Part shown: positions 6,229-63,481 of the stretch, one piece after another
How positions within the stretch are numbered: the stretch's first letter is position 1
Layout of the letters: each line of letters begins with the position of its first letter
IMG/VR virus record: IMGVR_UViG_3300034175_000060
Span: 22,209-86,208 of that record
DNA: 64,000 nt
Source: a virus
Direction: 5' to 3' (one strand)
Program-made: the position numbers and the translations under genes
The notes under the pieces: model-generated
What the model saw: only the letters and a program-made list of their open reading frames with translations
What the model was told of the DNA's origin: nothing
Database searches by the model: none

Positions 6229-6250
6229 ATGCTCCTTTCTTATAGAGAGT

Positions 6251-6278
6251 ATTATACACCATATTTGTCCACTGTCAA
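6251..6278 (-). promoter_or_regulatory. sigma70-type promoter of the shared late class
   Basis: TTGACA-GTGGACAAATATGGTG(16)-TATAAT. Confidence 0.8.
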
Positions 6279-6282
6279 TAGC

Positions 6283-13038: not shown

Positions 13039-13068
13039 AGTGGGCGCTCTCCTTCGTATTTAGAGGTT

Positions 13069-13096
13069 ATTATACACCAGATTTGTCTCTTGTCAA
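13069..13096 (-). promoter_or_regulatory. sigma70-type promoter of the shared late class, upstream of portal
   Basis: TTGACA-AGAGACAAATCTGGTG(16)-TATAAT. Confidence 0.8.
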
Positions 13097-13140
13097 TAGG
13101 TAATATGTATAAAGACCGTTGTAAGTGTATAATAACGTTA

Positions 13141-15992: not shown

Positions 15993-16013
15993 GCTTTCCT
16001 CCTAATTACAAGA

Positions 16014-16041
16014 ATTATACACCAGATTTGCCCCTTGTCAA
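16014..16041 (-). promoter_or_regulatory. sigma70-type promoter of the shared late class
   Basis: TTGACA-AGGGGCAAATCTGGTG(16)-TATAAT. Confidence 0.8.
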
Positions 16042-16330
16042 TACCCTGAGAATGTCTTGCAAATAACACAACATATAAAGTTGTCATTCTGACTGCTTGA
16101 CTGCCAGCAAATATAGTGTAGAATAAATTCCATCGCAGCAAAAATAATTCTTGACAGCACTCAAAATTAAGAATATTCTGAGAACACTTACAACCCAAGG
16201 AGAACCCTATGTTACTGAAATTGAAGTATTCCCTCATACTTACATACGCTGCTTTCCGGCGCAAATCTGTGGTAGACTTATTCGGAGGTACATATGTTGT
16301 CTCAGGAAATTACGTTCGGAGGATTCGCTA

Positions 16331-25088: not shown

Positions 25089-26650
25089 ATCATTCGTCCT
25101 CATACTTAATAAGCGAAGTGCTTTTCAGCAAAGAAACATAAGTGGCATCCTTGTAAGCTTGTTCTTCGCTGGGGAAATACTTTTCAGATAGCTGCTCAGT
25201 TTTATCATTGTACCAAAACCATTTACTGCTGCAAAGTGCTTGTTGGGCAACATAACCAAAACTCTGCGCGTGTTCTTTATAAGTTTTCATGTTATTCCTC
25301 TGTTGTCGATGTATTGATCATAATCTGCTTAGGAAGCTGTGTCAAGGGATTTGTGAGGATTGTTGTTATTGTGTATCACCAAAGATTTTATACACTGTAT
25401 CCGCATCAATTTCCACCAAGCCATCTTCTGCCAGATTGCACGCTGTACGAATCTTTCGATACTCTTCTGTGGCTTCTTTACCCCAATGATTCAGTAATTG
25501 CCACTGTCCCCGATATTCTTTATCCATACGTTTCATAGCCTCAAACCGGCTAGGCTTCCTGAACAGGAAGAATCCAGTAAGATACTTGTCCACAAGCTTA
25601 TTCTGCTCCGCTTGAATCTCTTTGAGCAATGTCTGCTCGTATTTGAAAGCTGCCTCTCGCAGTTTGTAATAGTTTAGTTTTATTGTAATCATTATTGCTC
25701 CACATTTGTTATCTCAGGCGTATCATCAGAATCTAAATGCCAGTATTCATCAACATCATATCCTCCTTCGATACGCACATCAGCCATAGTCCTAGAATTA
25801 GCTATCTCGATGGCTCCCTCTTCGGAATCAGCTTCTACCTCAGTACAGCAGGATACAGTAACGCTTCCGTGTATTTGATAGAGCATGTCAATACCCCATC
25901 AGTAACAACGACTAACAACACTACCACCGGGCATCACATCTGCTGTGCAAGTGGTAGTGTTGCCAAAATAGTCAGTTGACGTAAGCGTGCTTCCCAACGA
26001 ATTGCTTGTAAGCTCCACAGAAGGCTTTTGCACTGTAGCGGCTAGCGCAAGGAAGAGACATAGGGCAATGACAAATGTTACGAGGAGGGTTTCTGGTTTC
26101 ATTTTGCACTCCGTTTAAATGGTTTCATGATAAGGGGTTCCTTTTAGGTGGATTTATACTGCTCTTGTAAATATTGTTCCTGTTCGTGCAGCATGTCAAG
26201 CCATTCTTGTAATTGCTGTTGTTCTGGCGTCATGCAACCTCCAATATAATACTAGGCAAATTCAATTCTACACCCTTCCACCACTTGCACAAGGTTTCTT
26301 TCTCCTTAGCTGTGCAATAGTAGCCTAGAAGCTCCCAAAAAGCATGTAGGCGCTTGTTTGTCTCAACACCGGGCGGATGCTCTATATGGTCTGACAAGAT
26401 GCGCAGGTAGTCGCTAATGAGGACGGCTTTGCACACTTCATATTGTTGATCGTCTGTAAGTTCAATATTCATAATTCCACCACATAGCCAACTTCAATTA
26501 ATCGATTATCCACAGGATGCTGAATATACACATTAGCATCACACGGCTTACCATCTCGCAGACAACGAGTTTTCACCATATCGCGACCTAGGTCGTCTAG
26601 TTCGGCGGGGTCTTGCAATAGCTCTATAACTTCGTATTTCATATCAATCC

Positions 26651-27940
26651 TTATTTAGAACAATCTTCAACTTGCAGAATACCATCTTCTAACCAATTCA
26701 TTTTCATACTCACAACTCTGTCAACCTCGACAACTCGTTTATACGCATAGCTCATAGCGTCCACAAGCTTATCGGCATTCTTACGTTGTACTATAAATGA
26801 ATCGTGCACAACTAAAACAGGCTGTTGAATCTTTACAAACTCATCTAGTACGTAATGAGCAATCCAGCTATCTTTATTCTGTAGCACCAATCCTGTGCAC
26901 TCTTTGTTGCAGAACTTGCTTTTGAATTCCGGCAGCTTCTTATAGACTTCCTTTACAACCTCATCACCGGAGCTATAACAGAATGTTCCTTTCGGTTCCT
27001 CCGCAATTAGATCGTCAATAGCATTCTTTGCTTTGTACTCAGACGTAGCATTGAGCATAATGTTTATGCCAAGCTTTACAAGCCGTCTATTGTCTGTGCT
27101 ATAATTTTGCTTGTCTAGCACATGGTAGTAGATATCCATACCTCTATACTTACTAACACACATTATATCAGAAAGCATGTTAATGTGCAAGCAATCGAAG
27201 TCAATCTCAACAATAGATTCACCGTCAATTGTTGTTCTCAGTCGATCTTTAGTTTTCTTGTTCTTGATCTTGAGAATAGCAGCTTTGAACCACCGACCGC
27301 CAAAGAAGAAAGATTCATTGTTGAATATCCTACCATACATGTTCACCATGAAGCTACCGGCATAGTCTAGGAATATGTGATTAGAATTCAATTGATTGAC
27401 GGCAAATACAACACGCTCGGCCTCTACTAGTTCCTCTGTGAACTCATAAGCTATAGGATTCTTATTCTTGTCTCTTAGTTCGATACTTACATTGGCAAGA
27501 ATATGGTTATCCTCGGCTGTTGTCACTAACTCAGGCTTAGCACAGAACTTATCAATAAAGCTATCGGAGGGAACAACATACGATGACTGCTTATCTCCAA
27601 TGTCACCATATTGCCTAGGAGCAAGGTAATTGAACAGATAGCCTAGCTGTTGTAGTTCAGCCACAGCATTGTATATGTTATAATTAGATAGCTTACGTAC
27701 ATTGTAGATAGAAGGCAAGATACCTGTCTTACCTCTGAGATAGTATAGTCTCTGTCTACGCTTGACACAAGCAATCATATTCATGATGACAACATGTAAA
27801 GCTGATCTATTCTTAGTCTTCCATCGTTCAGTGATCTTCCTCACTCTCTTGTCTATCTCTATGTTTAGCATCATCACCTTACTGTTACTAGTGTATGATT
27901 GTGTGCTTAGTGTTATCCCTTCTTCTGTTACTGTAATCAT
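26651..27940 (-). CDS. Orphan DNA/RNA polymerase-superfamily (PolA-like palm) protein
   Basis: GRIFN...GGRWF, motif A-like IVEIDFDCLH, motif B-like RRLVKLGINIMLNA, LQNKDS and motif C-like VVHDSFIV. Confidence 0.7.
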   Translation of the reverse strand: MITVTEEGITLSTQSYTSNSKVMMLNIEIDKRVRKITERWKTKNRSALHVVIMNMIACVKRRQRLYYLRGKTGILPSIYNVRKLSNYNIYNAVAELQQLGYLFNYLAPRQYGDIGDKQSSYVVPSDSFIDKFCAKPELVTTAEDNHILANVSIELRDKNKNPIAYEFTEELVEAERVVFAVNQLNSNHIFLDYAGSFMVNMYGRIFNNESFFFGGRWFKAAILKIKNKKTKDRLRTTIDGESIVEIDFDCLHINMLSDIMCVSKYRGMDIYYHVLDKQNYSTDNRRLVKLGINIMLNATSEYKAKNAIDDLIAEEPKGTFCYSSGDEVVKEVYKKLPEFKSKFCNKECTGLVLQNKDSWIAHYVLDEFVKIQQPVLVVHDSFIVQRKNADKLVDAMSYAYKRVVEVDRVVSMKMNWLEDGILQVEDCSK

Positions 27941-28111
27941 CTATTCCTCTTGTAGTCTCTTCAGCTAGGCTAGTAGTCCTCCGCAGGTCAGGCGGGCTTA
28001 CTCATTATGGCATGAAATCAACGCCTAAAAGCCCACAAAGCTAGGCTGTATGCGGGTTCTAAGGCATTTCATAGTGGGTTATTGGTGAAAATCACCCTTC
28101 ACATAACGATC

Positions 28112-28139
28112 ATTGTACAGCAAGCCTGCACACAGTCAA
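28112..28139 (-). promoter_or_regulatory. Promoter for the polymerase-like gene, followed by a ~165-nt structured leader
   Basis: TTGACT-16-TACAAT. Confidence 0.7.
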
Positions 28140-28175
28140 GACAATTATAACTATCACCACAATAGCAATCAACTA

Positions 28176-28688
28176 TCATACACCTACCTTATCAGCCATC
28201 CATCGAACAACTTTCTGCACTACAGAATGTTTCACTTTAGCAACAGGTTCAAGCTTCTTAAGAGATTCACTAATCTTGTGCAACACTTGTACAGAATCTT
28301 TCCTGAAGTCTGTTTCAAAGATTGCCTTAATATTATTAGCTGCCAAGCTTACAGAGATGGTATTTTCTACAGTGTAGCCTTTCTCACAGTCAACACGTTC
28401 TAGTGTCAAGTCTGTGGGCCGACGTACGTTATCACTTCCTGTACGAGTAAGCTTGATGCCTGTGTATGCACAATGTTCCACTTTTAACAACTCTTCTACA
28501 TCTTGACGAGTTAAAGAGAAAGCAATCTTACGCGCCCTACTGCTGTTAGCTTTGTTGCGATAGAAATTATCTATACGGTGTTCGGTCCATGGCTCGGAGT
28601 CAGCAGGAGGCAAGTTCTTTACAGTTTCTGCTTTCACTTTCTTCACAGCTTTTCTTTGCACAGCTTTAGGTATTTTAACAGTAGTCAT
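28176..28688 (-). CDS. T4 Srd-like (putative anti-sigma / HNH-fold) protein
   Basis: RKIAFSLT...CAYTG...LTLERVDCEKGYTVENTISV...N resembles my recollection of T4 Srd (CAYSG...LSLERFD...GYIKGNVIAV). Confidence 0.6.
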   Translation of the reverse strand: MTTVKIPKAVQRKAVKKVKAETVKNLPPADSEPWTEHRIDNFYRNKANSSRARKIAFSLTRQDVEELLKVEHCAYTGIKLTRTGSDNVRRPTDLTLERVDCEKGYTVENTISVSLAANNIKAIFETDFRKDSVQVLHKISESLKKLEPVAKVKHSVVQKVVRWMADKVGV

Positions 28689-31136
28689 AATCTCACCCAT
28701 GTTTGATAATCACCCTCACTATACTCCCTGCCATTCACCCTATCCCTAGCCTTCTCAATCTCTACCAGCGCCTCCCTATGCCCCTCACAAGCCCTGTTCG
28801 CTTGATCGTCGCTAAGCCTCCACAGTGCTGGCACGCGAAGCTCTCCTAGAGCCTTACAGAACGTGCAATAGGTGTTTATGTGCTTAGGAATGTGTACATC
28901 AATGCACCTCCACACTATCCACATAATACCTAGTATCCTTCCCTGCCATAGCTTGCAACTCCTTAGCCATCTTCATAGCATCATCTTTCTTAAGGTAACA
29001 GATAATAGTTTTGGAATGGGAGTATTCCGGCTTATTTTGTTGTACTCTATAAATAATCATTTCAAATCCCATTCCAACTGTCTGTTACAAGCGACATATC
29101 CGATGACAATACAATGTGCCACCAGTCCCATTCACACTTACTTTTCCTATCAATGTCCCACTCATGATAGTAACCAGCTTCAAAGAATTCTACAGCTTCA
29201 TCCAAGCTATCAAAGTCTCCTTGGTAATCATTAATACCACCATTGGCGTGGAAGTTGTTTCCAGCAAATAACAAATAAGCTTTCATTAGTCAATCCTTTG
29301 GTTATTAACAGCTTCCAATGCCAAGCAAATACCGTAAAGATTCCCTTTATCCCACTCTGTCCAACCTTCTTTGGCAGAGTATTCTAGAAGTAAGGTTTTT
29401 AATTTGTCTTCCACAGACGTACTACTTTCCTCCAACCTACAAATCATAGCACGAAGCCGCTTAGTTTCATCTAAGAATGTCTCAAGCTTCACATAGGTTC
29501 CTTGCTCAGATTCTACCATGACGGCATAATGCCACTCTGAGGAGGATTCACCACCACCATAACATTGCTCTGTTTCAATAGCAGGGCTAAATTTGCGTAC
29601 CATAGTCATTCCTCAAAAATGATGTGCACCATGACAATCTTCTGCAAAGGTAGTTTGGCTAAAATCATTCCGTAGCTTCACTTCCACACTTGTATTAGCA
29701 TGATTATACTTAGTCTCTGCCGAATATTCCACTTCTACACTAACTTGCAAGTACTTCTCAACAGCAGCCATAACAGCCGCGTCGAAGTCTTCTTGTGTGT
29801 CGAATGTAATCATATCACACCATCCTAGACAGCGCATCACGCGCATCAATTAGAGCATCATAGGCACTATCGCAATCTTCCTTCAAGCTGTTCAAGTCGG
29901 AAATAAACTCATCAAGCTTATCCCGGTCTTGTGCAATCTTTATCATATGCTTGTCAATACCTCTGATAATACTTTTAATCTTAGTTTTAGTTAGCATGTT
30001 ATTCCTGCTCCAATGTTATTCGTTTCACTCAAGCCCTCTCGCTTATTGCTCAAGGGTAATTGTGCCGACAAACTTTGTAAATTCGCTACGCTTCCAAGCT
30101 GTGCAATGTTCTCCGGTTTGGTTGTAAGAGCCTAGCTTTGGCCGATTGATAATAACACCAGCAAAGTAATTCTCGCCCTCATAGACGTTACCATCTGTTA
30201 CCAGCAATAAAAAGTCATGTTGGTCAATCACCAAGCTCCCCGGCTTGAAAATGTCCTCGGAGGAAGCTTCTTTGTGTTCGATTGTTATTTTCATGCTTTA
30301 TTCTCCAATCGTGCAAAAACACCACCTCTGGATGTAATTGATGTCTTACATTGAGACATATACTCTAGCGACATTTTGTAGTTGTTGTATTGTTGTTGAA
30401 ATTTCTCTTCGCCGGTTTCTGCAAAACGTATTGCCGCCGCCTGCATAGAGTCTTTTACCAAACTAATTTTATAGTCAAATTCTTTAATAATTTCTAGGTA
30501 GAGTTCGTGGCCGGTGGTCATTATTTATTCCTTCACACAATGGTCAATACTAAGTTGCAGAGCCAAACACAGCGCCTCTAGCTTATGCTCTGGCAAATCT
30601 TTCAGCAACGAATAATCATCTAAGACACCGGCGATGATTTCGACCAAGTCTTTAGTGCTTACGGTGAGGGTTTTCATAATTATTTCCATTCATTGTAAGA
30701 GCCTCCACGGCTCGATTGACGTTCAGGCTACATACAGACGTATTCGTCAAATAGCGATCCTGAGTGGCTTACAGGCTGTTGTAGAGGTATTCTAAGGCTG
30801 TTCTCCGCACTCAGCAAGGAACTGTGCCATGCTAGCCTCTTGATGTGCCTGCCAAGCTTGCACATAAGCATTGTGATAGAAGTTAAGACCATCTCGATAG
30901 AAAGTGTTTTCAACCTCTTTCCATTTCTTGTATGCTGCTTTGGCTTCCAAGCGTGTACGATGAAATTCCTCTGTGACTGAGAAGTTTACAAGTGTTGGTT
31001 GAATTTTCATGATTTTCCTCGTTTCGTTATGTGCTGCCATGTGTTAAGAATAACCGAATTCAGAACATTACACAAGAATTATTTACAAATTTATTTAACA
31101 GCGCACAAAACTGCCCGCTTGTACGGGCGGGGTTGC

Positions 31137-47504: not shown

Positions 47505-48116
47505 CCACAACTCCCAACGATTTAAGATTATTAAAAATAGCCAACCTGCTCTCTGCGATATCAAGCTTGAAGCTCAACTCAGAAATCATTTTCCTCTGTG
47601 CGTTCAAATACTCCGACACGAAAATTACCAACACATCGTCTTTGCTCGGGCAATCACTGGCAAGATTTGTTCGATGTTGATCCACGTACAATTTAAACTC
47701 TGCCAGCAAATGATCTTCTTCATCCCTCATTATTCTCTCCATTGTGTGCTGCTTCGATTGATGTGTTCATTGCACGCCAGTCTTTCATGCTAACGTTGAA
47801 AGTTGTGGAAACATCGTGCCACACATCCATAACAACTAACTCTACCATTCCGGGGTAATAGGACACAACAAATTTATCCATCCCGCTTTCACGCTCAAAA
47901 ACTATCATTTTTCTCTCCTTTAATAATCAAATACATAATATCAAACAACAAATATACAGCAACTACCAAAGTTGCTACAAGTAAACCTTCTATCACAATT
48001 TTAGGAGGAACATAGCAGACAACTAGCAAGAGCACTATAACAGTGCAAACAATCATTATAACATTTACAAGCTTCATAACTCCTCCAAGATTTGTGAGAA
48101 TTCTGTGTGTAAGATC

Positions 48117-48196
48117 ATTGTACGCCTGAATTGTGCACTGTCAAGAATTTTGTGAGAATTGTTTGCTATTGACACCTCACGGATTTGTGATAGAAT
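48117..48196. promoter_or_regulatory. Divergent promoter pair
   Basis: - strand TTGACA-16-TACAAT (48117-48144) and + strand TTGACA-16-TAGAAT (48169-48196). Confidence 0.7.
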
Positions 48197-52016: not shown

Positions 52017-52394
52017 TTGAAATGGTTGTTGTGCTTGCTGTTTTGTGGTAATGTGTACGCAAAGGAAAGTTCAACAAATTGTCTCGCAACAGCATTGTAC
52101 AGAGAGTGTTCTGGATGTTCAGCAAGGGGACAGAAGGCAGTACTAGAAGTAATTGAGAATCGTGCACACTATGACAGGAAAAGTATTTGTGCGGTTGTGA
52201 AGAGTTCTGCTTTCCCTTGGTCGGCTAGGCAACAAAATTGGAAGCCTTCGCAAGAAGCCTTGACAATATTCTTTAGAGCGCGCAGAATGACACCTGTAGT
52301 GGGGAAAGGTGTGTATTATTTCAATAATGAGAAGATGTCCTATGGCAGGTTTGCTGTAAGGATTGAAGATCATTTATTTTATTATAGGATTTAG
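52017..52394 (+). CDS. SleB-like cell wall hydrolase (Hydrolase_2)
   Basis: Signal-like N-terminus; CLATALYRE...GQKAVLEVIENR...SICAVV...FPW...IEDHLFY. Confidence 0.85.
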   Translation: MKWLLCLLFCGNVYAKESSTNCLATALYRECSGCSARGQKAVLEVIENRAHYDRKSICAVVKSSAFPWSARQQNWKPSQEALTIFFRARRMTPVVGKGVYYFNNEKMSYGRFAVRIEDHLFYYRI

Positions 52395-52395
52395 T

Positions 52396-53004
52396 ATGAC
52401 TAGAGGAAAGAGCAAAAACTTCGATCCAGAAAAGTTATCAGTTTTTGGTGTAGGTTGCATAGGTTCAGGAGACTACACAACAGGAGGTGATAATAAAACT
52501 AGAGTTTACAGGGTTTGGCAGGGTATGATGTGGAGATGTTATAGCAGTTCGCAACCAGTGTCTTATGCTGGGTGCACGGTTCATGATGACTGGTTAAATT
52601 TTCAGAACTTTGCTAGAGACTACTTCAAGATGTTTGACCACGCCGAGGACGACTGGCAACTGGACAAAGACATACTTGTTAAAAATAATAAAATTTACTC
52701 TGTCGAAACTTGTGTAGCGTGCCCCTCTGAGATTAATAAAATATTTCAGAGAAGTAGAGGGTCAAGGGGTAAGTACCCATTAGGTGTATCTTGGCATAAA
52801 AACCATGACGTATTTTCCGCGAATATGCAAGTTGAAGGTAGAACTAAATTCTTAGGGCATTATATTAATGTAGGAGATGCATTTATGGCCTATAAAACTT
52901 TCAAAGAACGTTATATAAAAGAGGTCGCGGAAGAGTATAAAGAAATAATCTCTGACAAGTTGTATGAAGCACTTTTAAATTATGAAATTTCTATTAATGA
53001 TTGA
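52396..53004 (+). CDS. HNH-like ('DKD') endonuclease with AP2-like domain
   Basis: WQGMMWRCY...WLNFQNF...QLDKDIL...YSVETC...PLGVSW. Confidence 0.8.
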   Translation: MTRGKSKNFDPEKLSVFGVGCIGSGDYTTGGDNKTRVYRVWQGMMWRCYSSSQPVSYAGCTVHDDWLNFQNFARDYFKMFDHAEDDWQLDKDILVKNNKIYSVETCVACPSEINKIFQRSRGSRGKYPLGVSWHKNHDVFSANMQVEGRTKFLGHYINVGDAFMAYKTFKERYIKEVAEEYKEIISDKLYEALLNYEISIND

Positions 53005-54404: not shown

Positions 54405-54974
54405 TTGAAGCCTTGTATGACTCTTGCGGAAGCCAAGGAAGTATTTTACCTAGACGGCACTAGTCCTTCTGGCATCCGGTGGAAGATAGATAAATTCTGC
54501 GGTAAGTATAACCAGTTTCACTGTGTTGTAAAAGGTTCTGTTGCCGGTTGCCAAGATAAATACTGGAGAGTCACATACAACTACAAAAATTACCACTGCC
54601 ATAGAATTGTAATAATGCTTGCAGAAAATTTAGAAGCATGTGAGGTTGATGTTGTAGATCATGTAGATGGGGACGGTTTAAATAATAAGTTGGAGAATTT
54701 AATATTGTCAGGTACTGCTAAAAACATGAGAAATAGAAAGCGAATGACATCCAACAAAAGTGGAGTTACAGGTGCATTTGTAGTCAGCATCCATGGTAGG
54801 CTATATGCACGAGCACAGTGGTACGATATAGACGGCTCTCGCAGAACTAAGAACTTCTCCCACAATAAATACGGAGAAGCAGTAGCTTGGCAAATGGCAA
54901 TTGATCTTAGAGATGAAAAATTTAAAATGTTGCAAGAACAAGGTGCAGGTTATTCTGACAGACACGGTAAATGA
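54405..54974 (+). CDS. HNH endonuclease with AP2-like C-terminus
   Basis: HRIV...VDHVDGDGLNNKLENL...N.RN...NKSGVTG. Confidence 0.85.
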   Translation: MKPCMTLAEAKEVFYLDGTSPSGIRWKIDKFCGKYNQFHCVVKGSVAGCQDKYWRVTYNYKNYHCHRIVIMLAENLEACEVDVVDHVDGDGLNNKLENLILSGTAKNMRNRKRMTSNKSGVTGAFVVSIHGRLYARAQWYDIDGSRRTKNFSHNKYGEAVAWQMAIDLRDEKFKMLQEQGAGYSDRHGK

Positions 54975-57956: not shown

Positions 57957-59181
57957 TAATAAGTATTGGAGAACACATGAAACATCTAGCCGCAATTCAA
58001 TCGCAATTGGCAATTAATAAACAGGTTATCAAGATTCTACAAGAAGATATTACTGTGGCACGTGATAGAAAGACTATGTGTGACTACGAAGGATATTTGG
58101 ATGCTGAGCATTATTGGCACAAGACGTTGAAAAATCTTCGATCACAATTGAAAAATTATGTCCGTCTTCAGCAAGCATTGAAACAATTGTGCAAAGGGAA
58201 TGTATAATGGATAGTCGAATTCTACAAAGCCTCATCCAAATTAATTCTGACAATATCAGTCGTGTTCAGAGTTTTTATCAAAGCTTCAAAGACATTTCCA
58301 AGAATGCCTTCCACGCTGGCAAGGATGAAGAACATAAGAAGTATCTGAAGCTTGCTAAGAAGGAGTTGGCTAAGATGCATTTGCTTGAACGTAATCAGAA
58401 AATTTTGAAACAGACTCTTGATGATAAGTATTACAATGAGCTTATGGATAAATTGACTGACGATTATGATCTTCTGGAGATGAGTTATGACTAACCGTCA
58501 CGGACTAGACACAGACTATTTCTCCAAGAAGCTGAAGCTTGTATTGGAAGGCATCAACAGCTATACTCCTGACGAGATGGCGCGAGAGCTTGCTAGGTTG
58601 GCTATTACGGCTGATGCTAGGAGTGCTGGTGTGGAGTTTATCAGGTATAATGAGCAATGTAATTATGGGAATAAATAATGGTAGCCCTATTTGCGTTTAC
58701 TGTGTGTTGTGCTAATGATAGCCCATGGTATGTATTTCTTATTGGGTTCTTGCTGTTATTGATGGAGGGTAAGTGATGGCTATTACTTATAGAAATATGC
58801 TTGTAGCAATTGATGATGAAAATTTCACAGCACGAATCATGGACAGTTATGACGCACAGTTTGAAATTGAGCAGGAAGGTGACTGGTTTATTGTGACCGA
58901 GAAAATCGGTGATATGGATCATCTTGTGTTGGAGACTGACAGTTTGTTTACAGCATTTCAGTTTGTGAAGGACTGGACATGATGAAATACCTAGAGTGGT
59001 CTGAGCCTTGGCAATACGGAGACGAACCTACTGAGTGGGTGGAAGTGTTGTCACGTATGACTGTCAAGGATGCCATTAAATACCAGCGTGGGCTTTATAC
59101 TAACGTGTATAAGGATAAATGTGATGATTATCCTTTGGAGGATTTCATTGCAGATCGGTGGGCTAAGATTGTGGAGGGTTG

Positions 59182-60825
59182 ATGGGATATTGGAAAAAGG
59201 ATGATATGAGCGAAAAAGAAGACGAAGGTAGTAAGTTTGTACCTAAAGAAACGATGAAAGATGTTGAGAAGTATCCTTTTGTCGATATTCCTGATCGTGG
59301 AATCCGCAAGGAAACGTGTGAACGGTTTGGTGTCAAAGGATGCGTCAACAATGGAAAGCTTGAAGCAATTTACTTTCCATATTACGACCAAAAAGGTGTT
59401 CTTACTGCTTACAAAAAGCAAGATGTCACAAAGCACAAATCGGAAAAAGGTCACTGGGGAGTTATTGGTACGCTGACGATTTCCAATAAGCTGTTTGGTC
59501 AAGATGTTGCTGAGAAAATAAATCGGAAAAAGAATAACATCTTTGTCACCGAAGGATGTCACGATGCAATGGCAGCTTTTCAGGCAATGAAGGACCAAGT
59601 TAAAGGGACCAAGTTTGACGGTATGGAACCTTTTGTTGTCAGTATTTCGATGGGTACTGCAAATGCTGTTGAAGCAATGCTACACAACGAAGATTTTATT
59701 CAAGGTCATGAAAAGATAACTCTTGCTTTTGATGGAGACTCTACGACTCCCGCTGAAAAACTAAAAGGTATCATGAAAGGACTTGAGGCAACAGAAGCAG
59801 TTGCTGGTGCTTTTGTTGGAGATAATCTGTATGTTGTGCCATACGAAAATGGTTACAAAGATTGTAGTGATTATCTTCAAGATGGTAAGAGTAATGAGCT
59901 TGCCAAACTGCTTCAGTTCGGGACTAAGCGATTTGTCACCGAGAAAATTAGTTATGCTTCAGATGTGACTTTTGAGGATTTGATTAAAAAACGAGAAGAG
60001 GGTTTGTATTGCCCAAGCTTCCCAAAACTGATGAGCAAGATTCGTGGTTTTCGCAAATCGGAATTGATCCTATTGACGTCAGGTGTTGGTGTTGGTAAAT
60101 CAACTGTGACAGCATCTTTTGCTGCTGACTTTATCTCAGCAGGGGAACGAGTAGGACTTATCTTCCTAGAGGAAACTCAGAAAGAAACTCTTCAGCGTAT
60201 GGTTGCTCACCATTTGAAGGTGAATTTCAATAATTTCAAGAATGATCCTTTGTCTTGTGCATCTGAGGAAGCAATTCGAGAAGCTTACGATTTCATTGTC
60301 AATGATGACAAAGCAGTTTTCCTTTCTCATTTTGGTCACATGTCAATTGAAGAACTGATGCCGAAGATTAAGCACATGCATCTTGTCAGCAAGTGCGACC
60401 GAATCATCATCGATCATTTGACCCTCGTGACAGCATCAGGAAGTTCTGATATTGATGAGCGTAAAGAGATTGACAAGTGTATGACAATGCTAGCAGCATT
60501 CTGCGCTAGTAATCCGGTGACAATTATTGCAATCAGTCACATCAATCGTGGTGGATTTGCAGATAACAAGCCTCCTAAAGACGCTGAGACAGAAGCATAC
60601 TGGGTGAAGGTAGATAAGAGCCACATGCGAGGTTCTAGTGCCTTGGAAGCACTGTCTTGGATCATTCTAGGTCTTGAGGGACAAGTGATGCCAGATCGTA
60701 GTCGGGGTAATGCTCGACTTACCGTTTTGAAGAATAGACCATTCGGCAACCTCGGGGTATGTGATGAGTTCTGCCTCGACCCTACGACATGGGAAGTTTT
60801 GCTGGTTGAGGATAGGAGTAACTGA
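59182..60825 (+). CDS. T7 gp4-like primase-helicase, lacking the N-terminal Zn-binding domain
   Basis: RGIRKET..RFGV, YFPYY, LFGQ, Toprim EGCHD / FDGD / KDCSD; SF4 helicase GVGVGKST, LEE, IIDHL, ISHINR, RGS, LKNR. The start may instead be 59206. Confidence 0.92.
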   Translation: MGYWKKDDMSEKEDEGSKFVPKETMKDVEKYPFVDIPDRGIRKETCERFGVKGCVNNGKLEAIYFPYYDQKGVLTAYKKQDVTKHKSEKGHWGVIGTLTISNKLFGQDVAEKINRKKNNIFVTEGCHDAMAAFQAMKDQVKGTKFDGMEPFVVSISMGTANAVEAMLHNEDFIQGHEKITLAFDGDSTTPAEKLKGIMKGLEATEAVAGAFVGDNLYVVPYENGYKDCSDYLQDGKSNELAKLLQFGTKRFVTEKISYASDVTFEDLIKKREEGLYCPSFPKLMSKIRGFRKSELILLTSGVGVGKSTVTASFAADFISAGERVGLIFLEETQKETLQRMVAHHLKVNFNNFKNDPLSCASEEAIREAYDFIVNDDKAVFLSHFGHMSIEELMPKIKHMHLVSKCDRIIIDHLTLVTASGSSDIDERKEIDKCMTMLAAFCASNPVTIIAISHINRGGFADNKPPKDAETEAYWVKVDKSHMRGSSALEALSWIILGLEGQVMPDRSRGNARLTVLKNRPFGNLGVCDEFCLDPTTWEVLLVEDRSN

Positions 60826-61403
60826 TGGTTTACGGAAAAGGATTTTATTTAGCAGGTAAATATGTTGCTAGAATTTCCAGAACAGAAATGAGCAGAGAAT
60901 ATGATGTGTGGACAAAAATGCTTGAGAGGTGTTATGATGACAAATTCCAGACCAAGTGTCCAACATATAAAGGATGCGAGGTTTCTGACTATTTTCTCAA
61001 TTTCCAGAACTTTGCCGAGTGGTGTAATACTCAGGTAGGTTTCTCACAAAAGTTTCAATTGGACAAGGACTTGCTTCATAAATCTAACAAACTTTACTGT
61101 CCTACCAAGTGTGTATTTCTCCCTCAAGAGGTAAATAAGTTCTTGATTGGTTCCGATGCAAGTCGTGGAGATTTACCGAAAGGTGTATCGTTTCACAAGG
61201 TCACAGGAAAGTATCAAGTGAGAGTTCGGGAAGATGGAAAATCACACTATTTGGGGTTGTTCACAGATATTGATTTGGCTAAGAACATTTACAAGTCAAA
61301 TAAAGAACGTATTGCTAAGAAACTTGCGTTAAAATGGCAAGATGAAATCGATAGCAAAGCTTTCTATTCTCTCTTTAACTACGAAGAGGAATTTATTAAT
61401 TAA
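60825..61403 (+). CDS. HNH-like ('DKD') endonuclease with AP2-like domain
   Basis: WTKMLERCY...NFQNFAEW...QLDKDLL...YCPTKCVFLP...LPKGVSF. Confidence 0.8.
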   Translation: MVYGKGFYLAGKYVARISRTEMSREYDVWTKMLERCYDDKFQTKCPTYKGCEVSDYFLNFQNFAEWCNTQVGFSQKFQLDKDLLHKSNKLYCPTKCVFLPQEVNKFLIGSDASRGDLPKGVSFHKVTGKYQVRVREDGKSHYLGLFTDIDLAKNIYKSNKERIAKKLALKWQDEIDSKAFYSLFNYEEEFIN

Positions 61404-61408
61404 GGAAT

Positions 61409-63481
61409 GTGATGAATAGCAAATGGATTATGGATGAGGAAAATTATCCAAATATTTTTACCGTAGCACTCATTCGAGAGGATGAGAAGTTTGAGAATGT
61501 CTTTGAGGTAAGTGCTCGTGTGAACCAAATTGACAGAATTCTCGCTTTTGTAGACCATCTTGAAAAAGAAGATGACTACATGGTAGGGTTCAACAACCTT
61601 AACTGGGATTATCCCATCCTTCATAAGATTCTTGCTATTCGTCACAAACTTCCGAAATGTGGTGAGGAATGTGCACGATTGTTTTACACGTTTGCTGAGG
61701 AACAAATTGCTAGTATGAAGGGTGAATTCGCCAACACTGTAAAAACGTCTGATCGAATTGTGAAGCAGATAGACCTCTTTAAGCTAAACCACTTCGATAA
61801 CAAAGCGAAGATGACAAGTCTGAAGATGCTTGAATTCAACATGCGTGAAAATAACATTGAAGACTTACCTTTTCCTGTTGGTAAAGATTTGACATTTGAA
61901 GAAATGGATGTGTTGAAGAAATATAACCAACATGACGTTCGTATGACACTTGCTTTCTATCGGCATTGCAAATCACAGATCGAATTCCGTGAGAAGCTTA
62001 CTGTACAGTTCGGTAAAGATTTTATGAATCACAGCGATAGTAAAATCGGTGGTGACTTCTTCCAGATTAAGCTTCAAGAAGCAGGAATCCCAATTTATAA
62101 ACAAGTTGGCAAACATCGCAAACTAAATCAAACCATTCGTCCGCATATTAAACTGAGAGATTGTCTCTTTGATTATTATGATTTCCAACGTCCAGAGTTT
62201 GTTGCAATTAAGAATTGGTTTGCTAAACAAATTATCAAAGAGACTAAAGGTGTTTTCACAGACATCGAAGAACACCGTTTGTATGATGTTGCTCAATATG
62301 CTGAAATGGTTGTCAAGAAAAAGAAATGTCCGAACGGTGAACCTAGTCGTTCTGAGTATGATGAATTTAAGCGAGAACATCCTTGTGGATGGGTCGAAAA
62401 GATTCAGCTTAAAGCGAAAAAGAAAGGTGAGTTCCAACACTCTTATTATTACAAATGGAAAATTGCAGAAACGTTGAATGTTGTTATTGACGGACTCCGT
62501 TATGATTTCGGAGTAGGTGGTATTCATGCAAGTATTCAAAATTCGGTTGTCTCTAATGACGAAGAATATGAAATCATCGATGCAGATGTAAGTAGTATGT
62601 ATCCAAACATCTCTATCAGCAACGATGTTTATCCTCAACACTTGACCAGTAAGTTCTGTGAGTTGTATTCTGATTTGTATGAGCAGAGGAAGTCGTATGA
62701 TAAGAAGTCAGCAGAGAATGCCATGTTGAAATTGGCGTTGAATGCAACATACGGTAACTCAAACAATGAATATAGTGTATTCTTCGATTCGCAGTACACT
62801 ATGAAGATCACTATCAACGGACAGCTTTCCTTGTGTCTGCTGGCAGAAAAGCTTATGAAGATTGACGGTCTGATTATGTTGGCCTGCAATACTGATGGTC
62901 TTACTGTAAAACTCCCACGGAAGAAAAGGGAACAGTATAACGAGATTTGTATTGCTTGGCAAAAACAAGTAAAGCTTGATCTTGAGTTTGTTGAGTACCA
63001 GAAAATGTGGGTGAGAGATATCAACAATTATTCTGCATTATATACTGATGGTAAGGTCAAACAGAAAGGGGCTTACGAGTACAAAGATTTAGGATGGCAC
63101 AAAAACCATAGCTCTTTGGTTATTCCGATGGCTGCTGAAGCTGCAATGCTTCGTGGTGAAGATGTTCGAGAGTTTATCATGAACCATAAAGAGAAATTTG
63201 ACTTTATGTTGCGTACCAAAGTCCCTCGCAGCAGTCGTCTGGTGCTGGTGAACCAAGATGGAACTGAAACAGCCTTGCAAAATATCTGTCGTTATTATCC
63301 GTGCAAATCTGGAGGCAAACTGATTAAAATCATGCCACCTCTTGAAGAAGGTGGAGAAGAACGGCGACTTGGTATCGATACAATGTGGGATGTAAAACCG
63401 TGTAATTCGATGGATGATTATGTAGGTGATATCGATTACGACTATTTTGTTACTGAAGCAGAAAAACTGGTGATTAAATGA
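61409..63481 (+). CDS. Family B DNA polymerase with 3'-5' exonuclease
   Basis: Exonuclease motifs DEE, GFNNLNWD, YNQHDV; polymerase motifs DVSSMYP, KLALNATYG, NTDG, K.KG. Confidence 0.93.
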   Translation: MMNSKWIMDEENYPNIFTVALIREDEKFENVFEVSARVNQIDRILAFVDHLEKEDDYMVGFNNLNWDYPILHKILAIRHKLPKCGEECARLFYTFAEEQIASMKGEFANTVKTSDRIVKQIDLFKLNHFDNKAKMTSLKMLEFNMRENNIEDLPFPVGKDLTFEEMDVLKKYNQHDVRMTLAFYRHCKSQIEFREKLTVQFGKDFMNHSDSKIGGDFFQIKLQEAGIPIYKQVGKHRKLNQTIRPHIKLRDCLFDYYDFQRPEFVAIKNWFAKQIIKETKGVFTDIEEHRLYDVAQYAEMVVKKKKCPNGEPSRSEYDEFKREHPCGWVEKIQLKAKKKGEFQHSYYYKWKIAETLNVVIDGLRYDFGVGGIHASIQNSVVSNDEEYEIIDADVSSMYPNISISNDVYPQHLTSKFCELYSDLYEQRKSYDKKSAENAMLKLALNATYGNSNNEYSVFFDSQYTMKITINGQLSLCLLAEKLMKIDGLIMLACNTDGLTVKLPRKKREQYNEICIAWQKQVKLDLEFVEYQKMWVRDINNYSALYTDGKVKQKGAYEYKDLGWHKNHSSLVIPMAAEAAMLRGEDVREFIMNHKEKFDFMLRTKVPRSSRLVLVNQDGTETALQNICRYYPCKSGGKLIKIMPPLEEGGEERRLGIDTMWDVKPCNSMDDYVGDIDYDYFVTEAEKLVIK

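Follow-up and report, generated by a model that had tools for sequence, protein, structure and literature searches.

The window, as we call the whole stretch of 64,000 nt analyzed here, takes in positions 22209-86208 of a phage genome that is complete at 86,208 bp and ends in direct terminal repeats, and it carries on its minus strand a gene for a 429-amino-acid (aa) protein with the palm motifs of a polymerase. A ~165-nt leader runs ahead of the gene, and within this leader lies a short DNA word, AACCCGCAT, which has stayed beside the gene in each of the four genomes compared and is the core word of a ~25-nt element, ccTGaAACCCGCATGGATACTGGcTTT, that is found in many other phages. A preliminary description of the locus, made from the letters alone, had proposed a polymerase together with a cognate cis element. 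Within this clade the evidence supports a linkage between the polymerase gene and a cis element, and by inference enzyme and element may share a role in priming or in the initiation of replication. The features of the locus, all on the minus strand, are as follows.

26651-27940, minus strand: open reading frame (ORF) of 429 aa starting at 27940, the gene for a polymerase that very probably belongs to the divPolA2 family
26663-27502, minus strand: predicted family-A palm and fingers, residues ~147-426, from VIA-align and Foldseek, without a canonical thumb or exonuclease
27491-27853, minus strand: N-terminal domain, residues ~30-150, a probable winged helix from the model and its structural matches
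27963-27971, minus strand: second copy of the 9-mer AGCCTAGCT; the first copy, at 28039-28047, overlaps the 3' flank of the element
28012-28072, minus strand: 61-nt imperfect hairpin specific to this genome (dG, the folding free energy, -21.1 kcal/mol; z -3.23)
28037-28065, minus strand: diverged copy of the element, GCCTTAGAACCCGCATACAGCCTAGCTTT, with the invariant word AACCCGCAT at 28050-28058
28112-28139, minus strand: sigma-70-type promoter-like site, TTGACT-16-TACAAT, with 10/12 matches
28144-28172, minus strand: second, upstream promoter-like site, TTGATT-17-TATAAT

The start at 27940, and with it the length of 429 aa, is supported because 15 homologs (46-85% identity) align from residue 1 and because AGAGGA lies 5 nt 5' of the ATG; the public gene call for this ORF is shorter, at 337 aa (P0004). 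The complete genome carries one copy of the gene. The preliminary description had called the protein an orphan, a label that is ruled out by a search of cluster representatives, which returned 2229 matches at E <= 0.001 and 407 at E <= 1e-10, and by homology to divPolA2. Alignment A2, which holds 117 relatives down to 20% identity, was compared by hhalign with the divPolA2 representative AUR84708 and gave a probability of 99.7 (E 1.1e-26, 326 columns). Used as a hidden Markov model (HMM), A2 matched Barba1A (E 2.7e-62), MG592441 (9.6e-45), HNL01 (1.6e-126) and a 553-aa hypothetical protein of ICP1_2006_D (E 2.3e-52), and Foldseek returned from BFVD a protein named DNA polymerase of Rheinheimera phage Barba31A (E 1.5e-19). 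On these profile matches we are confident that the protein is a divPolA2 member, and as such it adds one member to a family of more than 2,000 clusters, already named in 2024 and so far described by computation only.

The founders of divPolA2 are barbaviruses of the Rheinheimera phage Barba18A group, and its modeled representative, AUR84708, comes from Vibrio phage 1.063.O. Passages of Yutin et al. 2024 (Virol J 21:200, PMC11348598) relate that the family came to light in 110 barbaviruses with genomes of 80-85 kb, all of which also encode PolB, and they treat it as previously undetected. The same passages describe an active-looking palm with no thumb and no exonuclease, a globular domain at the N terminus for which no similarity could be detected and a gene that lies in a variable neighbourhood, and they consider the enzyme unlikely to be the replicase and possibly a DNA polymerase for repair or an RNA polymerase (RNAP). 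The name divPolA2 was found in the literature only in that paper and its preprint. Relatives also occur in bacterial sequence. A chromosome contig of Loktanella sp. Alg231-35 holds a full-length homolog of 509 aa (L058:2506-4035; hhalign E 2e-53), the gene for which sits between a SRAP-domain gene and a KAP-family NTPase gene, and ten more matching loci lie in metagenome-assembled genomes assigned to Ignavibacteria, Bacteroidetes, Desulfovibrionaceae, Geoanaerobacter and Pelagibacteraceae.

The AlphaFold2 model of the 429-aa protein, built from A2, has a predicted local distance difference test score (pLDDT) of 94.5 and a predicted template modeling score (pTM) of 0.91. In VIA-align its palm and fingers match apPol (apicoplast Pol; 9qsc) at Z 15.9 (243 aa, 3.7 A), Pol nu at 14.9 and Klenow at 14.6, and also yeast mitochondrial RNAP at 13.9, T7 DNA polymerase at 13.2, T7 RNAP (3e2e) at 12.1 and the N4 enzymes at 8-9. 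Foldseek found 143 PDB matches at E <= 0.001, of which the top rows shown are family-A DNA polymerases. The elements first read at this locus, a 429-aa ORF with palm motifs and no exonuclease in a phage that has a PolB at 61409, are thus all present, with family-A matches at Z 12-16 and a polymerase palm in the structural comparison. No exonuclease domain was detected in the protein: the family-A matches set in near residue 147, and residues 30-150 make up a domain of their own that is modeled with confidence.

The motifs occupy residues 245-252 (EIDFDCLH), 286-297 (RLVKLGINIMLN) and 378-381 (VHDS). Eight residues (G215, R216, E245, D247, Y271, K289, H379 and D380) are invariant in the 117 sequences of A2, and N182, R233, H252, D269, R285, N297, L353, S358, S381 and M396 are at least 90% conserved. 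The model places GGR216 on a beta-hairpin (strand 214-218), D247 of motif A at the end of strand 241-248, R285-x3-K289-x3-N293-x3-N297 of motif B on helix 282-297, and H379-D380-S381 of motif C in the turn between strands 376-378 and 381-385. Local hhalign comparisons lay GGR and D247 on the Klenow TGR and DYSQIE of E. coli PolA (47 columns, probability 0.4%) and HDSF on the IHDSF of T7 RNAP (32 columns, probability 1.2%), and neither alignment is significant alone. As modeled, the enzyme is a palm and fingers of the PolA/T7-RNAP type that lacks a thumb and an exonuclease and has a complete catalytic set. Its sugar preference is not readable from the sequence or from known enzymes, because two positions depart from either class: His252, five residues past the Asp of motif A, and Asn297, where each class has a Tyr.

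Sequence libraries leave the protein unnamed. Pfam gave no family at E <= 1, neither DNA_pol_A nor RNA_pol (PF00940), and as a control the RNAP of Erwinia phage Y2 does match PF00940. With the same 429-aa protein, NCBIfam gave only a sub-threshold match to the chi subunit, PADLOC gave none, and phmmer against PDB gave only a chance match to a P450 (E 0.61). PHROGs place the protein in phrog_4756, function unknown, and a Pfam search with ten longer relatives revealed no added domains.

The N-terminal domain probably is a winged helix. Within the full model it has a pLDDT of 91-98, and residues 16-152 folded alone reach 94.5. Residues 30-150 of the full model match winged-helix proteins at Z 5.5-6.4, and when the domain is taken alone nearly all of its top 50 VIA-align matches are winged helices, among them MarR, GntR, PadR, ORC and ScpB, the best being 2obp (Z 6.7, root-mean-square deviation 2.9 A, 74 residues). 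The best Foldseek E value for the domain alone is 0.019, to MarR-family chains, and the A2 profile has weak PadR-family matches over residues 37-127 (E 0.02). We regard the fold class as probable and not certain because all of the Z scores are below 8.

The leader follows a promoter-like site that had already been noted at 28112-28139, and this site is present as described (TTGACT-16-TACAAT, 10/12 matches). Both it and the outer site upstream of it are kept in L002, in which the proteins are 52% identical; the outer site is nearly identical there, and the inner one is also found in L001. A family of near-consensus sigma-70-like promoters (in reverse complement, TTGACA..N17..TATAAT, with conserved flanks) stands ahead of structural, replication and other genes of the window, at 6243-6281, 13061-13099, 16006-16044, 48109-48147 and 28108-28141, and the inner leader promoter resembles the D1/D4 sites of this family. 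Since such promoters precede structural and other genes, they suggest that the phage relies on the host RNAP throughout.

Leader DNA was compared among the window, L001 (P0002), L002/L010 (P0015) and L007, and this sample includes two of the 15 close homologs P0001-P0016, a set from which P0004, the window's own protein, is left out. The sole word of at least 9 bases common to all four leaders is AACCCGCAT. It lies 118 nt 5' of the start codon in the window, 103 nt in L001 and 130 nt in L002, and in L007 it lies 84 nt away and is inverted. The word occurs exactly once in the window's own genome (86,208 bp), in G001 (84 kb), in G002 (87 kb) and in G003 (a 33-kb fragment), and it is always the leader copy. 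Among 20,000 shuffles of the L007 leader, 18 contained it. The element thus stays within 130 nt of the gene in four of four genomes, down to 39% protein identity and across an inversion. L001 and L007 moreover share a 15-mer, AACCCGCATGGATAC, in opposite orientation, and about 45 nt around it align in reverse in L007. We read the word as a DNA-level site because it is conserved at every base and occurs in either orientation.

A short ATG-initiated frame runs through the conserved word (28072-28025 on the minus strand of the window, MKCLRTRIQPSFVGF; L001:3884-3958, MKCLRTRMDT...; L002:3849-3914) and has no ribosome-binding site. That the word is conserved as part of such a tiny leader ORF (MKCLRTR..) was considered and rejected, since not even third codon positions vary among the 9 bases and the whole segment is inverted in L007, and the frame is probably a by-product of the conserved DNA word. 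Among relatives that are 30-34% identical (L003-L006), a terminator-like hairpin (GCTACAGGC...GCCTGTAGC and a T run) stands upstream of the divPolA2 gene in place of the element (L004-L006:3860-3900; L003:2590-2630).

The 61-nt hairpin that had drawn attention to the leader, and inside which the word lies, is present and is matched by only 2 of 200 shuffles, but it is not conserved: L001 has a different hairpin (z -1.55), L002 has none (z +1.65) and L007 has another (z -2.46). The consensus fold of the three alignable leaders reaches only -5.7 kcal/mol and does not contain the 61-nt hairpin; these relatives do not carry a similar structure upstream of the gene. The fold of the whole 191-nt leader is ordinary (z -0.70, with 47 of 200 shuffles as good), and the 71-nt stretch that separates the hairpin from the start codon, where two small hairpins had been proposed, folds at z +1.43, which is not above chance. 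No terminator was found in a scan of 26000-29500, and Rfam gave no match to the leader at E <= 1. The hairpin is best read as a local feature of this genome and not as a functional unit.

A repeated 9-mer, AGCCTAGCT, was also correctly seen. The minus strand has it at 28047-28039 and 27971-27963, the plus strand at 27640-27648 and 30129-30137; the four copies in the window compare with 0.5 expected, and none of 100 shuffles reaches four. It was not found, however, in the leaders of L001, L002 and L007. The copy in the coding sequence (27640-27648, inverted) coincides with the QLGY codons. Positions 27639-27649 (plus strand) and 27962-27972, 312 nt apart, form a perfect 11-nt inverted repeat, TAGCCTAGCTG / CAGCTAGGCTA, which joins the leader just 5' of the ribosome-binding site to the gene at codons ~97-100; its chance expectation is roughly 0.07, and it was not seen in relatives. 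The purine-skewed tract reported to run into the gene does show an excess near the start, but this excess is in line with a strand bias that extends over the entire 22-42 kb block.

Beyond this clade, a scan of a viral collection for the 15-mer AACCCGCATGGATAC recovered at least 117 loci, each reaching at most ~7 kb per side. The ~25-nt element ccTGaAACCCGCATGGATACTGGcTTT is a consensus of 115 distinct instances, with instances located in the window (28037-28065, minus strand), in L073-L189, at L190:2855-2872 and in L191. Whether the 15-mer family is real was judged by its non-random flanks and not by a chance expectation; across 125 instances, position +1 is T in 82%, +3 is G in 74% and -2 is G in 62%. 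By our own reading, the window copy GCCTTAGAACCCGCATACAGCCTAGCTTT matches this consensus in register over both flanks, the 3' one being TAGCTTT, and over the nine leading bases of the core, and it has diverged in the centre.

In 49 of 113 loci, versus 18 of 308 control windows, some 8-mer is found at least three times no farther than 150 nt from the masked core, and in 21 of 113 versus 4 of 308 at least four times, with repeat words that differ between genomes. Several contigs have two copies of the element 76-190 nt apart, which are inverted around AT-rich DNA in L077, L095, L120, L122 and L182 and direct in L156 and L178. The commonest close neighbour, at 24 of the at least 117 loci, is an ORF family of up to ~1,080 aa, a representative of which matches PHROG DNA-primase families and Pfam DUF5906 (primase plus D5-like helicase). 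The core is located 33-331 nt past the stop codon of this primase-helicase ORF in 20 of 25 adjacent instances, in either orientation, and a terminase lies ~1.9 kb from the element in 23 loci. Because the element is single-copy and free in orientation, is accompanied by genome-specific repeats and AT-rich pairs, and often stands at the end of a primase-helicase gene, it is plausible from its layout that it is a replication origin or a similar unique cis site.

Rfam returned nothing at E <= 0.1 for 14 element-bearing loci, the 115 instances yielded no consensus RNA fold, and excess hairpin stability around the core was seen in only 29 of 123 instances. Conserved RNA structure was dropped as an explanation since the consensus fold failed both for the three leaders and for the 115 instances. 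Compared by eye with the consensus sequences of several known signals (sigma-54 promoter, extended -10 element, DnaA box, IHF site and RP4-type nick site), the core fits none of them in register. A full-text literature search for the motif word did not find it. Among cultured phages, a 44-nt instance matches intergenic sites in Pseudomonas, Erwinia, Pantoea and Escherichia phages, and Erwinia phage Y2 and Pseudomonas phage YMC11/02/R656 have one copy each even when 3 mismatches in 18 are allowed. In Y2 the element lies 730 nt past the gene for a 631-aa T7-like RNAP. With up to 3 mismatches, the 15-mer gave noise-level matches in Barba1A, HNL01, G004, Curvibacter P26059A and Limnohabitans DC31, none of them near a divPolA2 gene; as far as these genomes go, the element therefore is not linked to divPolA2 outside this clade.

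What might a small polymerase do beside such a site? The best single explanation, to which we assign a probability of roughly 0.45, is that it is a starter polymerase acting at an origin, a reading that draws on the tight linkage of element and gene in the clade and on the architecture of the enzyme. Most likely the gene would be transcribed by the host RNAP from one or two sigma-70-type promoters by way of the ~165-nt leader. The accessory divPolA2 enzyme would be an active, template-dependent nucleotidyl transferase that its winged helix brings to a specific DNA site, where it may start or extend a short chain. In doing so it may contribute to the initiation of phage DNA replication at the adjacent element or close to it, and bulk synthesis would be left to PolB and the gp4-like primase-helicase.

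A number of observations weigh against a starter polymerase at an origin. The phage already encodes a primase-helicase, so no priming function is missing. Curvibacter phage P26059A and Limnohabitans phage DC31, the phages with the closest PolB, have no divPolA2 gene, which thus is dispensable for a replication module of this kind. The GC skew has no flip at the polymerase gene and tracks the direction of transcription, and a scan of it gave no sign of an origin there. By our own reading, 4 of the last 6 core bases are changed in the window's copy of the element, around which no 8-mer occurs more than twice. Only L007 is a fairly independent witness to the linkage, the window, L001 and L002 being alignable descendants of one ancestor. 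On the side of the protein, the winged-helix assignment rests on Z scores below 8; the mapping of residues onto Klenow and T7 RNAP rests on motif order, on secondary structure in the model and on the two non-significant hhalign alignments; and Asn297 replaces the motif-B Tyr of both known classes. Finally, no divPolA2 relative was found by tblastn and A2 hmmsearch in 117 element loci (1.03 Mb, ~7 kb per side). The element thus does not need the divPolA2 enzyme, and the adjacency of the two may reflect a shared "origin region" or a coincidence of descent. Of the cognate cis element that had been proposed, the linkage holds, with AACCCGCAT beside the gene in 4/4 genomes, but the word "cognate" is unproven because the element occurs in at least 117 loci without a divPolA2 relative within ~7 kb.

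An alternative function for the protein is that of a dedicated, miniature T7-type RNAP, which would transcribe a set of phage genes or make one transcript from the element as its promoter. We consider this unlikely. It would account for the HDS(F) of motif C, which is as in T7 RNAP and in which S381 is at least 90% conserved, and for the mitochondrial, T7 and N4 RNAPs among the structural matches (Z 8-14); family-A DNA polymerases, however, score equally well or better, and in AUR84708 motif C is FDE and not HDS. The motif-B Tyr selects NTPs in T7 RNAP, and here it is Asn. The size of the element, ~25 nt, is that of a promoter for a single-subunit RNAP, and in Erwinia phage Y2 it does lie 730 nt past the gene for the 631-aa T7-like RNAP, yet one copy per genome argues that the element is no general promoter, and the structural and replication genes of the window carry sigma-70-like promoters of their own. 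A protein of 429 aa is also too small to hold an N-terminal promoter-melting domain or a specificity loop. An RNAP activity is nevertheless raised in passages of Yutin et al. (PMC11348598), and one cluster of look-alikes in the Atlas has been automatically named "DNA-directed RNA polymerase family protein."

It is also possible, if improbable, that the enzyme is a DNA polymerase for repair, gap filling or lesion bypass and that the element is an unrelated neighbour, for instance the origin of the phage or a sequence to which a host factor binds. Repair is the first option named in the divPolA2 passages of Yutin et al. (PMC11348598), in which the gene is said to lie in a variable neighbourhood, and it would suit a gene that is accessory, being missing from the two phages with the closest PolB, and an element that is widespread without it. 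A domain of the sequence-specific DNA-binding type in place of a thumb would be unexpected in a repair polymerase, however, and the gene is found among small early genes and not among repair genes. Moreover, an unrelated neighbour would hardly be expected at no more than 130 nt from the gene in 4/4 genomes, to 39% protein identity and across an inversion.

The weakest of the alternatives, that the leader is a device for controlling expression, either an operator for the enzyme's own winged helix or a leaky terminator or attenuator that keeps the polymerase low, has a precedent in T4 DNA polymerase, which represses its own mRNA, and would fit the position of the element, which in the window, L001 and L002 comes after the promoter and before the start codon, the GC stem CCCG...CGGG with a T-rich run in 3/4 genomes (window, L001 and, inverted, L007; own reading) and the thermodynamically unusual 61-nt hairpin of the window, but it is very unlikely, as the same element occurs past primase-helicase genes and in other contexts in either orientation and hence is not a leader device of the polymerase gene, its 115 instances have no consensus RNA structure and only 29/123 have excess stability, L002 is without the hairpin, and 26000-29500 holds no detected terminator.

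A starter polymerase at an origin can be extended beyond this clade. In the extended form, divPolA2 enzymes would be site-specific starter polymerases for phage origins, and ccTGaAACCCGCATGGATACTGGcTTT would be a previously undescribed, single-copy origin core, common to hundreds of otherwise unrelated phages and satellites, on which different enzymes could act in place of one another: a mini-polymerase with a winged helix, as here, a fusion of primase and D5-like helicase or, in Chaseviridae, a small T7-like RNAP. As a whole this extension is doubtful. If the element were an origin core across unrelated phages, it would be a useful marker for phage origins in metagenomes.

The remaining genes that bear on the locus are as follows.

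26469-26642 and 26230-26472, minus strand: ORFs of 57 aa and 80 aa just downstream of the polymerase gene
28176-28700, minus strand: 174-aa gene with PHROG matches named "HNH endonuclease," "Srd anti-sigma factor" and "decoy of host sigma70"
52363-53004, 54405-54974 and 60825-61403, plus strand: three HNH endonuclease genes in the nucleotide-metabolism/replication region
59179-60825: gp4-like primase/helicase of the replication module
61409-63481: PolB (phrog_1252, E 2e-173)

The polymerase gene stands inside a long run of small minus-strand ORFs, ~33 kb from PolB and ~31 kb from the gp4-like primase/helicase, with the 174-aa gene as its upstream neighbour and the 57-aa and 80-aa ORFs downstream. 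The two downstream ORFs keep the same order in L002, and the 57-aa one is also in L001; neither is in L007. The 174-aa HNH/Srd-like gene is directly upstream of the conserved promoters of the polymerase gene and looks like an insertion, since L001 and L002 hold different, shorter ORFs at this position. One of the three HNH genes is wedged between the primase/helicase and PolB, two of them are paralogs (phrog_953), and an HNH gene adjoins PolB in the closest-PolB relatives too. This DNA occurs in two DNA sequencing runs, from biocrust and soil metagenomes, and no RNA run is listed.

Although the protein is not new in kind, the window adds a concrete candidate substrate for the very large divPolA2 family. 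A single-copy element has stayed beside the divPolA2 gene through deep divergence and an inversion, and the same element occurs in many phages in a layout typical of origins. With a candidate site in hand, the question of whether the enzyme is a DNA polymerase, an RNAP or a primase, and the question of where it acts, become directly testable with one protein and one 30-bp site.

Several known systems can be set beside this one. The protein is like divPolA2 in its size of ~430 aa, in having palm and fingers motifs A, B and C without an exonuclease or canonical thumb, in its N-terminal globular domain, and in its setting in an 86-kb phage with PolB and with the gene away from the replication module; its structural neighbours are also those given in passages of PMC11348598, including the mitochondrial and N4 RNAPs. 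It differs in that pairwise BLASTP to AUR84708 reaches only E 4e-5 over 107 residues, in having HDS as motif C where AUR84708 has FDE, and in its linked DNA element, none being discussed in sections 13 and 14 of PMC11348598.

A second relative in design is TV-Pol, which passages of Iyer, Abhiman and Aravind 2008 (Biol Direct 3:39, PMC2579912) present as a minimal PolA/T7-RNAP-like core that never has a nuclease domain, occurs in viruses and mobile elements, in some cases with an extra N-terminal domain, replaces prim-pol modules and is predicted to have primase-polymerase activity. The window protein resembles it in the Arg of GGR216 on a beta-hairpin, in D247 and D380, and in R285-x3-K289 in the fingers. 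A homolog is found in Loktanella sp., the genus of the first TV-Pol example in those passages of PMC2579912, the identity of the two proteins not being confirmed. Unlike the genes for TV-Pol, the gene here has no D5-like helicase, resolvase, integrase or transposase next to it, and the A2 profile found nothing in the genome of Microcystis phage Ma-LMM01, a TV-Pol host listed in that part of PMC2579912.

The window protein and CcPol-MP, which are set side by side by description only, are both trimmed A-family polymerases on mobile elements. CcPol-MP is said to be the primase of SCCmec treated by Bebel et al. 2020 in eLife. Passages of Rice 2023 (PMC10061031) describe CcPol-MP as a trimmed A-family polymerase of SCCmec that makes primers de novo, and as the sole one of its kind with biochemistry; according to the same passages, CcPol depends on a small OB-fold partner, the gene for which adjoins its own, and keeps a shortened thumb.

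T7-type RNAPs share with the window protein the palm and fingers fold (Z 12.1 to 3e2e) and the HDSF of motif C, whereas the window protein is half their size, lacks an N-terminal domain of the T7 kind, a specificity loop and a thumb, and has Asn for the motif-B Tyr. From polymerases of the Pol I type it differs in having no Pfam DNA_pol_A match, no thumb and, at 297, Asn instead of the motif-B Tyr-Gly. At the primary origin of T7, replication is primed from promoters of the phage RNAP, and the likeness to this origin lies in the idea of a polymerase that recognizes one DNA site and supplies the first primer there.

In satellite phage P4, ori and crr lie beside the gene for the alpha primase-helicase, and the DNA-binding domain of alpha is a winged helix. 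A ~20-nt core common to very different phages is not known to be a feature of P4-type origins, and repeats are not enriched around the window's own copy of the element. The element family nonetheless resembles iteron origins of the P4 type in the repeats around its core just past a gene for a primase plus D5-like helicase, and the window resembles them in that its element stands beside the gene for a polymerase with a probable winged helix.

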